A DNA stretch of 64,000 nt from a virus, in IMG/VR virus record IMGVR_UViG_3300035701_000003. One strand, 5' to 3'. Shown here piece after piece: positions 51,666 through 56,456 of the stretch. The notes beneath the pieces are model-generated. The model searched no databases. It worked only from the letters and a program-made list of their open reading frames with translations, and was not told the DNA's origin. A program made the position numbers and the translations under genes. Position 1 is the stretch's first letter. Each line of letters opens with the position of its first letter.

Positions 51666-53363
51666 ATGAACCTTCCAGAAAAACCAGCCATAATTCAATC
51701 CTTAGCGGATATGGAAAAAGAATTGAATGACTCCAAAAAAACAGTTGAAGCTTTTATGGACGACATTGATAATCTTTCTCCTGATGATATGCAATTTGAT
51801 AATAAGGACGAATCCTTAGGTGAAGAGGATAAGGAAAAGATTAGTGAGATAAAAACTCCAGAAGACGCCAAGAAAGTCCTCAAAACTGTGAAAGATGACG
51901 TTGATAATGTTATCAATAGTTTAGATGGGTTAGCCGGACAGACCCAAGAAGAAAAGAGTGCCAGCAAGTTTAAACGTTTTAATGAGAAGTATGCTAACGC
52001 TATAATGACCCTTTCTCAAAATGCGGATAAAGCTATCCAGGACGCCCAGGATGTATTACGTCATTGGGGCTTTTTAAGGAAAGCTAAAAAGATCGCGAAG
52101 AAAGTAACTCCAAGTACCTCCACTCCAGTATTAGCTACTTTGAATGAAGCTTTAGCAAGCGTTGAACAGACTGCTAAATGGTTGGATACAATGGCAGGCC
52201 ACTTTGGGTACATAAGAAAAGATGCTACAGCTGTTCCTCCTACCGGAGCTGACTTTACTGGTGATAAATGGCCTGAAGGTAAAAATCCAGCTGAAGTTGA
52301 ACTAAGGAATTGGCAATCAGGAGCTGATAAATTTAAAAGGGATAAGAAATTTGAAGACGCTCGTCCTAATGCTTCTGACGAAAATAGACTCAATACAGTT
52401 GATTATCCGCGAAGTGATAAACCTTTCGTGAACGCTTTTTTCCACCCTGTAGAAAATAATAAATTTGGTTCCTATTGGGAAGTAGTGGATACTAAGAGTA
52501 ACAAGAAATTAGTTGCAAGTTTTGTTAATTTACCTAAAGAATTATTCCCAAAGAACCTTCCTAAGAATGATATGACCTTCCAGCAGTTTGCGAGTCCTGC
52601 TTATGGTAATTCTATTGTAACCGCTGTTATTGAACGTGGAATAGACGCTGTCAAGAAAGAATTGGATGCCGCTGAAAGCGCTTTGGATAAAACCACCTTG
52701 AATAAAGTAGCTGCTGCAGATAAAGGTAATTTAAGAAAGTATTACACTGATGCTTATGGGGATGCTGGTTACGCTGGAGAATTAACTAAAGGTGCTGAAA
52801 AAGAAATGAATATTGGTTACACTCCTAAAGACGATTCCGTAAAGAATAAAAAAGAAGAAACCAAAGACGGTCCTGGCAAGATATCATCTGAAAAGGCAGA
52901 TCCTGAAGTATTAAAAGCAAAGGCACGAAGGGCTGTAAATTTAGCAAGAAAGCTTTCAAGCCGCGGAGCTTTGCCATTTACCTATGAATCTATTTATAAG
53001 AAAGCCGAAGAATTAATGGAACTTCCTGATGATCAATTTCAGGCAAAAGATCAAGCGCTTGATGATATTCCAGTTATAAATGAAGCCGCTCTTAAGGAAG
53101 CCCATATTCCTGATACCGAGATAGGTATTGTAGGTAATACCCCCGAAGGAGTAAGAGATCCTATGGCAAAAGTAACTACTGAAGATATCGATAAGAACGT
53201 AAAGAGTGATGCTACTATTAGTAAGGCTTCTTCTTTGATTCCTCAAACCTTTATAGATAATGATAAAAAAGGCTATCAGTTCGTGTTTAAGTCTATAAAA
53301 CAGAAACTCGAGGAAAAAGGAATTACATCTGATAAATTAAGAATTGCTAATAATAGACAATAA
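51666..53363 (+). CDS. Capsid scaffold-like protein
   Basis: Acidic coiled coils; AAGGAG RBS; position upstream of the decoration and capsid genes. Confidence 0.65.
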   Translation: MNLPEKPAIIQSLADMEKELNDSKKTVEAFMDDIDNLSPDDMQFDNKDESLGEEDKEKISEIKTPEDAKKVLKTVKDDVDNVINSLDGLAGQTQEEKSASKFKRFNEKYANAIMTLSQNADKAIQDAQDVLRHWGFLRKAKKIAKKVTPSTSTPVLATLNEALASVEQTAKWLDTMAGHFGYIRKDATAVPPTGADFTGDKWPEGKNPAEVELRNWQSGADKFKRDKKFEDARPNASDENRLNTVDYPRSDKPFVNAFFHPVENNKFGSYWEVVDTKSNKKLVASFVNLPKELFPKNLPKNDMTFQQFASPAYGNSIVTAVIERGIDAVKKELDAAESALDKTTLNKVAAADKGNLRKYYTDAYGDAGYAGELTKGAEKEMNIGYTPKDDSVKNKKEETKDGPGKISSEKADPEVLKAKARRAVNLARKLSSRGALPFTYESIYKKAEELMELPDDQFQAKDQALDDIPVINEAALKEAHIPDTEIGIVGNTPEGVRDPMAKVTTEDIDKNVKSDATISKASSLIPQTFIDNDKKGYQFVFKSIKQKLEEKGITSDKLRIANNRQ

Positions 53364-53413: not shown

Positions 53414-53857
53414 ATGAGTAAAGTAATTGTGCTGAACGCCTTTGCAAAGGATTTCTTTCCAGTATCCGCTGCATCCAAGGTTACTACGTGGTTACCTGGT
53501 CAAGGGTTCATGTTTAACTCTACTGGAGAGTATATTGAAATAGCTAACTGTGATAGCACTATGTTTATAGCCGGAGACGACGAGGACGAATTAGCTACTC
53601 CTCCTACAGGTTCCATATTAACGGTTTATTATGGCTCTGGTACTAAACTTTTAATAGATCACTCTGAAGAAGTAGCTGCTTCTAGCGCCGCTAGAGTATA
53701 TGAATCTGAAGTAGCTTCTGCTGCGCCAAATGCTAACTTGTATATTGGACTTACTGGTAAATGGCAGACAACTTCTACTGGAGCTGTTAAAGGTAAGTTA
53801 TTCCAGGTTCCAAGTGCTTATAATAATTACACTATGGGTGTAATTCTTAGGTTCTAA
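53414..53857 (+). CDS. Capsid decoration/cement protein (probable)
   Basis: 147 aa, beta-rich, between scaffold and MCP. Confidence 0.6.
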   Translation: MSKVIVLNAFAKDFFPVSAASKVTTWLPGQGFMFNSTGEYIEIANCDSTMFIAGDDEDELATPPTGSILTVYYGSGTKLLIDHSEEVAASSAARVYESEVASAAPNANLYIGLTGKWQTTSTGAVKGKLFQVPSAYNNYTMGVILRF

Positions 53858-54029
53858 TTAGAACTTTAGCACAGTATCATTATTAGCCCTCAGTTACGAC
53901 TTCCTGGACGCAGCTGAGGGCATTTGATTTTGAAATTTATCACGCTTCCAGTTTATATCTGGAAGTTCTTGCGATGCTTAGATAAAAGTAACACAAAGTA
54001 TCGTTCATTAAACAAAAGGAGTAAATAGA
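53851..54029 (+). promoter_or_regulatory. Structured leader of the major capsid gene (palindrome plus three hairpins)
   Basis: GTTCTAATTAGAAC palindrome; stems GCCCTCAGTT/AGCTGAGGGC, CTTCCAG/CTGGAAG, GCGATGCTT/AAGTATCGT; AAGGAG RBS follows. Confidence 0.5.
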
Positions 54030-56311
54030 ATGATTCTATTGAATTCAAGGAAACCAGGTGAAGGATTTGCGCTTAAGAAAGAAGCTGCAAATGTTCCTTT
54101 AACGGATCCTTACAGAACTTATGAAAGGTCTGTAACAGACGACGATTCTATTTGGCAAGCTCTAACTACGGAAGCCGGCCGTCAAGCTCTCGGAGCTTAA
54201 TTATTGGGTTCCTAATTTCGCTATATGCTGGAACATCTCGTTATAACCTAGCCGTACTTAGTTTTAATAACTAAGTAAAAATCGGAGAGTAGAGACAATC
54301 AGCAGGAAAATAAAAGATGAGTAAGTTGACTTTTATGCTCCTCAGAGACTACACGCGAAACACTTTGGGATACTTTTCTAGAGTGAAGATATAGTCCGAA
54401 CTCTATAGCGATATAGAGAAGGTAACAGAAATGTTTACCTCCTTGCGAAAGTAAGAGTAACAAATTTGCAAATGGCTGTTCCTATTCGTGAAACTCTTGA
54501 CTACGTCGGTGTAGCAAGAAAGTTTTTCGAGATAGACGTATTAGCTCAAGGCCAGATAGCGCGTTATAGTCATAGCGCACTTTAAACTTTGCTATATGCT
54601 GGAAACCCTTAATAGACATTAGATACGGTGAAAACGTAATAATTCTAATGGCTAAGACAATCAGCAGGAAAGGAATATTTTCATATGGGAACTTTAGGTA
54701 AAAGATGGGAAGTCCCCCATCATCAAAAATATAAGAATATAGTTACTCGAGAAGTTTTAACAGATGCTACTATTAGAAGAATTTCTGATTATAAACTTTC
54801 GAAAGAATTAAAAGTTCCAGTAACTGCTATTCAGCACTACCGCTATAAATGGCAGATACCAAGCGCTCGGTATGATTCTGAGGTATCTAAGATGAGAGAT
54901 TATAAATTATCTCCTGAGGAAGTAGGGTTGATTATAGGCACTGTTCTTGGGGATGGTCATTTAAGTTATTCCCCCGAAAGAGACGAAGCTTTTCTTATTA
55001 TAATGCATTCTGAAAAACAGAAGGAATATGTATATCATAAATATGAAAAGTTAAAAAAACTTTGTTTAATGGATGTTAAGCAATCTTTGATAAGTAACGA
55101 TTACGTTCAAAATTCTGTAGTATATAGTTTTTCTACTATTTGGCATCCTGATTTAGCTAAATTGCATAAGATTATATATATAGATGGTAAAAAATCAGTT
55201 ACTAAAGAAGCTTTGAAGTTATTGACCATAGCTGGATTTGCTTGGTGGTTTTTTGATGATGGTGCTTTGGGCAAGAAATTACAACAGTATAGTTTAAGTA
55301 CTTGTCAATTCCCTTTAGACCAACAAAAGTTGATAAGAGAATTTTTATTTAAGAAATTAGGTATTTATTCTACTATAGTTAGATCCTACCATAGGCAGGC
55401 TCAAAAGTATTTTTATAGTTTGTATATACCTAAAAGATCTAATGAAACTTTAGTTAGTTATTTAAAATCTTTTTTAGTTCCCTGTATGGAATATAAAATA
55501 TGTTCCGTTCCTCAGAGACTGACACGCAAAGCTTCTAATAAAATAGAAGATGATACAGTCCGAACTTCATAGTGATATGAAGAGTGATACAGAAATGATA
55601 TCACCACTCCTGAAGGAGAAAGTAACAAGATAGTATGACAAAGATATAGACGTTCCTGCCTACGTTGTGTCAAAAAGAGGCAAGGTCAATGAGTGGAATG
55701 TAGAAGGTGAATATGTTGAACCAACTACTTGGGAAATTTTCTCTCCAGCTCAAATCAGATTATCTCAAATCCAACAGAGAAGGTTTAATATTCTTGATCG
55801 TACTCAGGAAAAGATCAGAATTCAAACCCAGATTCAGGAAGACGACCAGTTCTTGGCATTGTTAAATACTACAACTGCTGCTAATACTACTAACAATCCT
55901 TTGACTACCGGCACTTCTGGTTGTGATAAAGCCTTCTTGAACGATGTAACCGCTGTTATTATGGATCATGACTTACCATGTTATGGTTTGTTAATGAGAT
56001 TTGATTCCTTTAAGGATATCAGAGGTTGGGATAATACGGATTTAGATCCCGTAACGATGCGTGAGATTTTAGAAACCGGTTTATACGGACAAATTTGGGG
56101 TATAGATATCATAGTAAGTAGAAGGGTTACTAAAGGACAAGTTTATGCGATAGCTGAACCGAGATTCTTTGGAGTAATGCCTATAAGAACTGAAATGATA
56201 TTAATGCCTGATGACAATCCAAAACAGGCTACTATTGGATATGTTGGCTACGAAGAACTCGGAATGGCCGCCGTAGTTTCCAATGGTGTCGCCAAAGGAT
56301 ATCATAATTAA
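54030..56311 (+). CDS. Major capsid protein, three exons (54030-54197, 54469-54564, 55634-56311; 313 aa spliced)
   Basis: Spliced reading ...GRQALGA|QMAVPIRETLDYVGVARKFFEIDVLAQGQIAR|YDKDIDVPAYVVSKRG...RRFNILDRTQEKIRIQTQIQED is continuous and matches the large-phage MCP pattern. Confidence 0.92.
54198..54468 (+). ncRNA. Group I intron 1 in MCP (271 nt, no ORF)
   Basis: P1 GGAGCU/GGUUCC with U.G at the splice site; P AUGCUGGAA, Q AAUCAGCAGG, R CAGAGACUACACG, S AAGAUAUAGUCC; P3 UUUCGC/GCGAAA; terminal G 54468. Confidence 0.93.
54565..55633 (+). ncRNA. Group I intron 2 in MCP (1069 nt) carrying a LAGLIDADG endonuclease
   Basis: P1 GCGUUAU/AUAGCGC with U.G after exon 2; perfect P10 (GUCAUA with exon 3 UAUGAC); P/Q/R/S elements; P3 CUUUGC/GCAAAG; terminal G 55633. 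Confidence 0.93.
54685..55572 (+). CDS. Intron-encoded LAGLIDADG homing endonuclease (two-motif type)
   Basis: GLIIGTVLGDGHL and AWWFFDDGAL motifs; AAGGA RBS; starts after Q and runs into the intron core. Confidence 0.9.
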   Translation: MGTLGKRWEVPHHQKYKNIVTREVLTDATIRRISDYKLSKELKVPVTAIQHYRYKWQIPSARYDSEVSKMRDYKLSPEEVGLIIGTVLGDGHLSYSPERDEAFLIIMHSEKQKEYVYHKYEKLKKLCLMDVKQSLISNDYVQNSVVYSFSTIWHPDLAKLHKIIYIDGKKSVTKEALKLLTIAGFAWWFFDDGALGKKLQQYSLSTCQFPLDQQKLIREFLFKKLGIYSTIVRSYHRQAQKYFYSLYIPKRSNETLVSYLKSFLVPCMEYKICSVPQRLTRKASNKIEDDTVRTS

Positions 56312-56348
56312 GTCTCTTTTATTGATCAGATAGCAGATTAGAGATGGG

Positions 56349-56382
56349 AAGGTATGTATCGAAAGATACGTACCTTTTTTTA
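56349..56382 (+). terminator. Rho-independent terminator after MCP
   Basis: AGGTATGTATC-GAAA-GATACGTACCT stem-loop followed by a T run. Confidence 0.85.
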
Positions 56383-56456
56383 TGTTTCCTTCCTCGTATA
56401 GAAGTTTTTATGTTTTTAGCTATATTTTTTGTGAAGAACTATAAAAGAATTATCTT

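Follow-up and report, generated by a model that had tools for sequence, protein, structure and literature searches.

Two group I introns, one with a LAGLIDADG endonuclease gene, in the predicted major capsid gene of an uncultured large phage

How could a phage produce its major capsid protein from a gene whose reading frame is broken twice? This question is raised by positions 54030-56311 of a 64,000-nucleotide stretch of viral DNA (IMG/VR virus record IMGVR_UViG_3300035701_000003, here called the window), for which the open reading frame (ORF) track contains only the last 214 amino acids of the protein. An earlier reading of this DNA from its letters and ORFs alone (the sequence-only reading) had proposed that two group I introns interrupt a major capsid gene, that they flank a middle exon of 96 nt, that only the second intron carries an endonuclease gene and that the joined exons encode 313 amino acids. 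The comparisons with databases and with related phages described here support this core reading.

Identity of the gene and its splice junctions

The gene and its parts are arranged as follows.

54016-54021, plus strand: ribosome-binding site AAGGAG, 8 nt 5′ of the capsid ATG, read directly from the sequence
54030-54197, plus strand: capsid exon 1, 56 codons, ending ...GGAGCT; its final base, U54197, is in the P1 U.G pair
54198-54468, plus strand: intron 1, group I, 271 nt, without endonuclease gene, terminal G54468
54469-54564, plus strand: capsid exon 2, 96 nt, 32 codons (QMAVPIR...GQIAR)
54565-55633, plus strand: intron 2, group I, 1069 nt, with an endonuclease gene in the P6 loop, terminal G55633
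54685-55572, plus strand: predicted I-SceI-like LAGLIDADG endonuclease gene with two motifs, 295 aa, inside intron 2
55634-56311, plus strand: capsid exon 3, 225 codons and stop, containing the 214-aa ORF called by gene callers
56346-56389, plus strand: terminator-like hairpin with a 15-bp stem and a T run directly 3′ of the capsid gene, found by consensus scan only

Joining of the three exons results in a 942-nt ORF for 313 amino acids. In-frame stops are located at codon 1 of intron 1 (TAA) and at codon 7 of intron 2 (54583-54585), where a ribosome on the unspliced RNA would promptly halt.

By homology, the gene is that of a major capsid protein from an uncultured large phage. The protein is a member of an HK97-fold family (PHROG 2522, PF25209), in which gp27 of Bacillus phage G is its best characterised relative. 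The family profile matches chain A of PDB 6WKK, the solved gp27 major capsid protein of phage G (1e-84). Exon 2 corresponds to positions 63-94 of PHROG 2522 (major head protein) and exon 3 to positions 97-315 (2e-42), and thus the pieces are colinear. Exon 3 on its own matches gp27 with 4e-49; the spliced 313-aa product is 43% identical to gp27 over 269 residues (7e-82), and both junctions are free of gaps in this alignment. The phage G gene differs in being uninterrupted and in an N-terminus that is approximately 30 codons shorter. Pfam searches with each of the three exons separately gave no match, so that the identification as capsid gene came from PHROGs and phage G. A search for near-identical DNA in phage records was also negative, which shows that there is no cultured close relative among them.

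To define the junctions, we used the proteins of relatives. A search of 5.8 billion proteins yielded 196 relatives, approximately 100 of which are full-length. These uninterrupted proteins read GRQALGAQMAVPIR and GQIARYDKDI continuously, exactly like the predicted spliced product, and both junctions fall inside the most conserved stretch of the protein, which is N-terminal. Exon 1 aligns to the approximately 100 relatives without gaps up to its end (...GRQALGA), and exon 3 does so from its first residues (YDKDI). The start of the protein is conserved as well, since the relatives likewise begin with MIL..., and residues 1-55 encoded by exon 1 are matched by the uninterrupted relative P0002 (tblastn). 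The middle exon differs from the intronless locus L007 at 25 of its 96 bases (74% DNA identity), while 31 of the 32 encoded residues are identical. This constraint at the protein level argues that exon 2 is translated in this frame, which is possible only after splicing. The junctions GGAGCT/CAAATG and GCGCGT/TATGAC (slash at the splice site) and all exon and intron boundaries of the sequence-only reading are thereby reproduced to the nucleotide, and the capsid assignment, the 96-nt exon and the 313-aa product with only 214 aa in the ORF track are all borne out by PHROG 2522, by gp27 and its structure 6WKK, and by the gap-free alignment.

No second copy of the capsid gene was found in the 64-kb window. 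An AlphaFold model of an uninterrupted relative was poor in the N-terminal half (mean predicted local distance difference test score, pLDDT, 59), too low to place the insertion sites on the fold, and was not used.

Ribozyme cores and the endonuclease of intron 2

The P1 U.G pairs, the terminal Gs and the perfect P10 of intron 2 on which the splice sites had been based are all present at the proposed positions. In intron 1, positions 54192-54200 and 54204-54212 form a P1 of 9 bp whose splice-site pair is U54197.G54207; in intron 2, positions 54561-54567 and 54572-54578 form a P1 of 7 bp whose splice-site pair is U54564.G54575. P10 of intron 2 is a perfect 6-bp helix (54569-54574 with 55634-55639). 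The free-energy fold of intron 1 recovers P1, P4-P6, P7/P8, P9, P9.1 and P9.2 (z = -3.2).

A comparison with group I covariance models had been suggested as a check on this reading. Intron 1 matches the Rfam model RF00028 with 77.8 bits (E 5e-18, threshold 50 bits). The match of intron 2 is partial and with 24.5 bits below the threshold, because the 840-nt ORF insert in P6 splits the core. At the loci of relatives Rfam detected only two of approximately eight introns, again because ORFs split the cores, and it was replaced by two covariance models for intron halves, R2 for the 5′ and R1 for the 3′ halves. Both were built from capsid-gene introns of other phages, with the sequences of the window left out. 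R2 matches the window at 54192-54309 (61.5 bits) and 54555-54671 (101.6 bits), and R1 at 54339-54474 (112 bits) and 55509-55639 (106.5 bits). Altogether, the four intron halves are matched with 61-112 bits (E 1e-12 to 7e-29), and the half-models have no other match below E 0.4 in the 64-kb window.

The helices are also supported by compensatory changes. An alignment of 13 capsid-gene introns revealed compensatory pairs in P3 (5/6), P5 (3/4), P6 (6/9), P9 (5/7) and P9.1 (8/8) as well as compensatory changes in P9.2, and P7 is invariant except for its end pair; 85-100% of the cells in the covarying helices are standard pairs. All 17 mapped introns are preceded by an exon U and end with G, and most of them open with an in-frame stop. 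Both introns of the window combine the P1 U.G pair, the terminal G with a P10, the conserved core and the compensatory changes. At the level of sequence, two group I introns in the capsid gene are confirmed, with a ribozyme match far beyond chance.

Phage introns of subgroup IA2 in the Michel-Westhof scheme (T4 td and Twort type) carry hairpins P7.1 and P7.2 between P7 and P3′, and the introns in orf142 of Staphylococcus phage Twort are of this subgroup and have the P7.1/P7.2 insert. The P7 strand (GACUA) is separated from the P3′ strand by no more than 3-5 nt, both in the two introns of the window and in every one of the 13 relatives, and this is too short for such an insert.

The endonuclease gene is found in intron 2 only, in line with the sequence-only reading. 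The predicted protein matches PF03161 (8e-26, profile positions 3-167 of 168), PHROG 11023 (1e-18) and, weakly, the I-SceI structures (1e-6). It contains the motifs LGDGHL (54946-54963, residues 88-93) and FFDDGA (55249-55266, residues 189-194), both with an acidic residue. Since it aligns over its full length with its orthologues (60% identity to the site-2 ORF of the related locus L009), the endonuclease looks intact. Like yeast mitochondrial I-SceI (PDB 1R7M), it would be a single-chain PF03161 protein with two LAGLIDADG motifs that is encoded in a group I intron; unlike I-SceI, which cleaves ribosomal DNA, its predicted target is the capsid gene, and the similarity between the two is weak. 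Compared with I-SceI it has an additional N-terminal part of approximately 75 residues.

The endonuclease gene is tightly embedded in the ribozyme. The ORF begins in the P6 loop, 13 nt past the Q element, its ribosome-binding site is located in the P6 stem, and its last ~70 nt (~25 codons) overlap P6′, P7, P3′, P8 and the start of P9. Beyond introns 1 and 2 and this endonuclease, no member of the intron family and no second copy of the endonuclease was found in the window by motif searches, by the half-models or by tblastn with the endonuclease sequence. Intron 1 contains a 25-codon ORF (54317-54394) with its ATG in the P6 loop, where the endonuclease genes of sister introns begin. This ORF may be the remnant of a deleted endonuclease gene.

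Distribution and descent of the introns

Comparison of related capsid loci (numbered with the prefix L) showed that both insertion sites are polymorphic. Site 1 and site 2 are the positions of introns 1 and 2. The following layouts were found.

L007/L008 and most IMG/VR loci: no intron
L005, L136 and L145: site-1 intron with its own LAGLIDADG gene, site 2 empty
L147: ORF-less site-1 intron alone
L004 (99.8% identical to the window): two-intron layout as in the window
L010: two-intron layout, first intron 5 nt further downstream
L009:1028-4181: three introns within ~100 coding nt, at sites A/Q, D/Y and R/Y, with exons of 33 and 63 nt

In L009, the middle intron has 267 nt and is ORF-less, and the introns on either side of it contain paralogous LAGLIDADG genes. 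An intron is present at site 2 in the window, L004, L009 and L010, whereas L005, L007 and most IMG/VR relatives have none there. Further insertion sites in relatives are located at codons ~78/79, 83/84, 133/134 and 226/227. Altogether, 12 of 51 IMG/VR loci are interrupted, and the truncations of approximately 21 of 120 protein cluster representatives coincide exactly with intron sites. About one in four of the related capsid genes is interrupted; the introns number up to three or more per gene and occupy at least eight sites. In more distant members from IMG/VR (L163, L167 and L168-L170) breaks were seen near codons 78/79, 133/134, ~150-160 and 226/227, and some of these genes are in at least four pieces. 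The inserts of L163 and L168-L170 contain no relative of the LAGLIDADG genes described here and may carry other endonuclease types.

The exon sequences next to the introns differ between occupied and empty sites. Occupied sites invariably read GCT/CAA (site 1) and CGT/TAT (site 2). Empty sites show mixed synonymous codons, and only 11 of 33 (site 1) and 7 of 37 (site 2) have the sequence of the occupied type. This pattern fits the requirement for a U before the splice site, and endonuclease resistance or co-conversion may have contributed to it as well.

When viral contigs were searched for the R...S core pattern, 100 loci were returned, only 11 of them with this capsid gene. Since the pattern is the general group I R/S consensus, it was rejected as a marker of a specific intron family, and the scan shows only that such introns are common in environmental phages.

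The sequence-only reading had called the two introns related. This is true at the family level; their cores are only 62-63% identical, much of this being the universal P/Q/R/S consensus, and they fall into separate, well supported site-specific clades. The core of intron 2 is 86-88% identical to that of the site-2 intron of L009, and intron 1 is nearest to site-1 introns (71-75%). In a likelihood tree, intron 1 and endonuclease-bearing members form a site-1 clade (support 97/99), and a second clade consists of the site-2, 1b, B and D introns, in which intron 2 and the site-2 intron of L009 cluster together. The endonucleases show the same division: identities are 42-61% among site-2 orthologues and 30-40% between these and the site-1 enzymes. 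The intron tree and these identities indicate that introns 1 and 2 are old paralogues with separate target sites. A recent duplication of intron 2 as the origin of intron 1 was rejected because of the 62-63% identity and the different clades. The most plausible reading of intron 1 is that it descends from the site-1 lineage and has lost its endonuclease ORF.

Splicing, spread and alternatives

We consider it highly probable that the window contains a two-intron capsid gene whose transcript is spliced to encode the 313-aa protein, with intron 2 as a mobile element and intron 1 as an intron that has lost its ORF. A single precursor transcript would cover the whole gene. Each ribozyme would fold its own core, the guanosine-mediated cut would occur after the exon U of the P1 U.G pair, and ligation of the exons after the terminal G of each intron would yield the mRNA for the capsid protein. 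Since this product requires the removal of both introns, virion production would depend on two splicing events. Intron 2 would owe its mobility to the intact LAGLIDADG gene of I-SceI type that lies in its P6 loop: the endonuclease is predicted to cleave intron-less capsid alleles of co-infecting relatives at ...GCNCGN/TAY..., and repair would copy the intron in. Intron 1 would represent the separate site-specific sister lineage, other members of which carry a paralogous LAGLIDADG gene in the same loop that has been lost here. It would now persist by descent and possibly also by co-conversion with intron 2, 96 bp away.

Several points weigh against this explanation. Splicing, the self-sufficiency of the ribozymes and the activity of the endonuclease are all deduced from sequence. 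P10 of intron 1 has 3 bp only, and the Rfam score of intron 2 stays below the threshold. The search for a second copy spans the 64-kb window, and an uninterrupted capsid gene might be present elsewhere in the genome. Furthermore, DNA identity between the window and L009 is similar for intron 2 (70%) and exon 3 (72%). As intron and exon have diverged alike, a recent horizontal transfer of intron 2 was rejected, and the equal divergence may mean that intron 2 is now inherited mostly vertically.

The alternative that survives best concerns the route by which intron 1 spreads. Intron 1 might mainly be a passenger: the enzyme of intron 2 would cleave an intron-less allele, and a repair tract reaching 96 bp upstream would co-convert intron 1 along with intron 2. 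The short distance between the sites speaks for this route, as does the observation that ORF-less capsid introns usually neighbour an endonuclease-bearing one (in the window, L004, L010 and the middle intron of L009). However, L147 has the ORF-less site-1 intron alone, and site-1 introns with their own endonuclease, with which intron 1 clusters, are present in L005, L009, L136 and L145, so that independent homing followed by ORF loss suffices for intron 1. Intron 1 is accounted for no less well by in situ loss of its endonuclease, and co-conversion is not required. Both accounts can hold at the same time, and we regard a mainly passenger role as a serious possibility, yet not the favoured one.

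Slightly less probable, and offered tentatively, is a wider reading in which the 100-nt stretch coding for the N-terminal arm is contested ground in large phages of the phage G type. Two sister lineages, each an intron with an I-SceI-like enzyme, would have been retargeted to neighbouring sites, no fewer than five of them from codon 55 to codon 88 and others further downstream, and the pair in the window would be a linked cassette. The enzyme of intron 2 would cleave and thereby handicap co-infecting intron-less relatives, repair would import both introns, and the ORF-less intron 1 would survive as a hitch-hiker. Interference competition has reportedly been shown for the polymerase intron of phage PhiPA3, and the situation proposed here would be its counterpart in a capsid gene.

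A further alternative is that splicing is more complex than proposed. Exon 1 might be joined to exon 3 in frame, resulting in a protein of 281 aa that lacks residues 57-88, or one of the introns might need the other intron or the LAGLIDADG protein as maturase. In Twort orf142 and in a Bastillevirinae polymerase gene, where phage group I introns stand in tandem, exon skipping has been documented (PMC11878797), the 96 nt of exon 2 are divisible by three, and the first bases of exon 3 could form two of the three P10 pairs of intron 1. But the 32 residues that would be skipped are the most conserved part of the protein, so that a protein without them would probably be of little use; both introns are equipped with a complete core, a P1 and a guide sequence of their own, and no sequence feature requires a helper. 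We therefore consider additional splicing of this kind improbable.

Finally, the gene might be decaying, with insertions that are no longer removed and capsid function provided from elsewhere in the genome or by a helper, a view for which one can cite that splicing is deduced and that the search for a second copy was limited to the window, but which we think hardly credible given the strong protein-level constraint on all three exons (for exon 2, 31/32 protein identity at 74% DNA identity), two complete ribozyme cores with compensatory changes across relatives, the retention of the layout in the diverged L010 and L009, and a 64-kb structural module without a second copy.

The surroundings of the gene were inspected as well. 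A hairpin with an 8-bp GC-rich stem, a 20-nt loop and a T-rich tail is located 5′ of the capsid gene (53886-53921); together with the hairpin downstream (56346-56389) it suggests that the capsid gene is its own transcription unit. Immediately 5′ of the capsid gene lies a 147-aa ORF (53414-53857) without Pfam or PHROG match, which is syntenic in all relatives (147-152 aa) and occupies the position of gp26, the capsid decoration protein of phage G. In its L005 counterpart a short segment resembles the N-terminus of the capsid protein (E 0.03). Two genes 5′ of the capsid gene, an acidic low-complexity ORF of 565 aa (51666-53363; 571-576 aa in relatives, syntenic) has a faint match to a T7 virion assembly protein and is a candidate scaffold protein. 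In the Bacillus phage G record (L001:397-2066), the coding sequence of the endolysin is annotated as a join of two pieces, so that at least one split gene is annotated close to the capsid gene in this cultured relative too.

That multi-intron late genes have been reported rarely, as the sequence-only reading had it, is out of date (PMC3706429; PMC7886860). Mycobacteriophage LittleE has a group I-type intron with a LAGLIDADG gene in its major capsid gene, and as in the phages described here the intron is missing from close relatives; its splicing was demonstrated by reverse transcription PCR and by N-terminal protein sequencing across the junction (Pope et al. 2013, PMC3706429). A capsid-gene intron of lactococcal phage Tuc2009 is cited in the same work (PMC3706429). 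LittleE is a temperate siphovirus with a capsid protein of 478 residues, a single intron and an I-CreI-like endonuclease gene on the opposite strand (PMC3706429), whereas the window has two introns of two lineages, an I-SceI-like gene on the same strand in P6 and a phage G-type capsid protein, and is known from its sequence alone. In crAss-like phages (Delta and Zeta groups), likewise uncultured, comparative genomics revealed major capsid genes that are fragmented by endonuclease-containing group I introns (Yutin et al. 2021, PMC7886860). They belong to another phage order and capsid family, with as many as five pieces per capsid gene and, in many cases, stop-codon recoding as well (PMC7886860); neither recoding nor inteins were seen in the capsid gene of the window.

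Twort orf142 resembles the window in having several group I introns and short internal exons in one late structural gene (Landthaler and Shub 1999). It differs in being a tail tube gene and not a capsid gene, and exon skipping has been observed there (PMC11878797). In the Jug huge gut phages a mean of 18.5 group I introns per genome was reported, and splicing was confirmed by metatranscriptome reads (PMC12880540). Like the capsid gene of the window, essential genes of these huge phages (terL, nrdD and polymerase) are split by group I introns, and commonly so, and a minority of their endonucleases are of the LAGLIDADG type; in contrast, Jug phages form another clade, the reported example is not a capsid interruption, and their introns are mostly short and ORF-less (PMC12880540). 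Capsid-gene introns and intron-rich huge phages are thus already published, and the principle is not new. The added interest is modest: the N-terminal coding region of this capsid family is an intron hot spot for two sister lineages of introns and endonucleases.

For the phages themselves, the locus implies that a large phage can rely on two ribozymes for its most heavily expressed late gene, if splicing proceeds as predicted. There is also a practical consequence. Gene callers report only the 214-aa fragment of this capsid protein, and the same mis-call affects approximately one fifth to one quarter of the family in public collections, so that capsid-based taxonomy and protein clustering of these large phages inherit truncated sequences. 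Finally, the family comprises empty sites as well as genes with one to three introns, both ORF-bearing and ORF-less introns, and paralogous endonucleases at sites 96 bp apart. It is a natural series for studying how LAGLIDADG enzymes change their targets, and it could also reveal how ORF-less introns persist.

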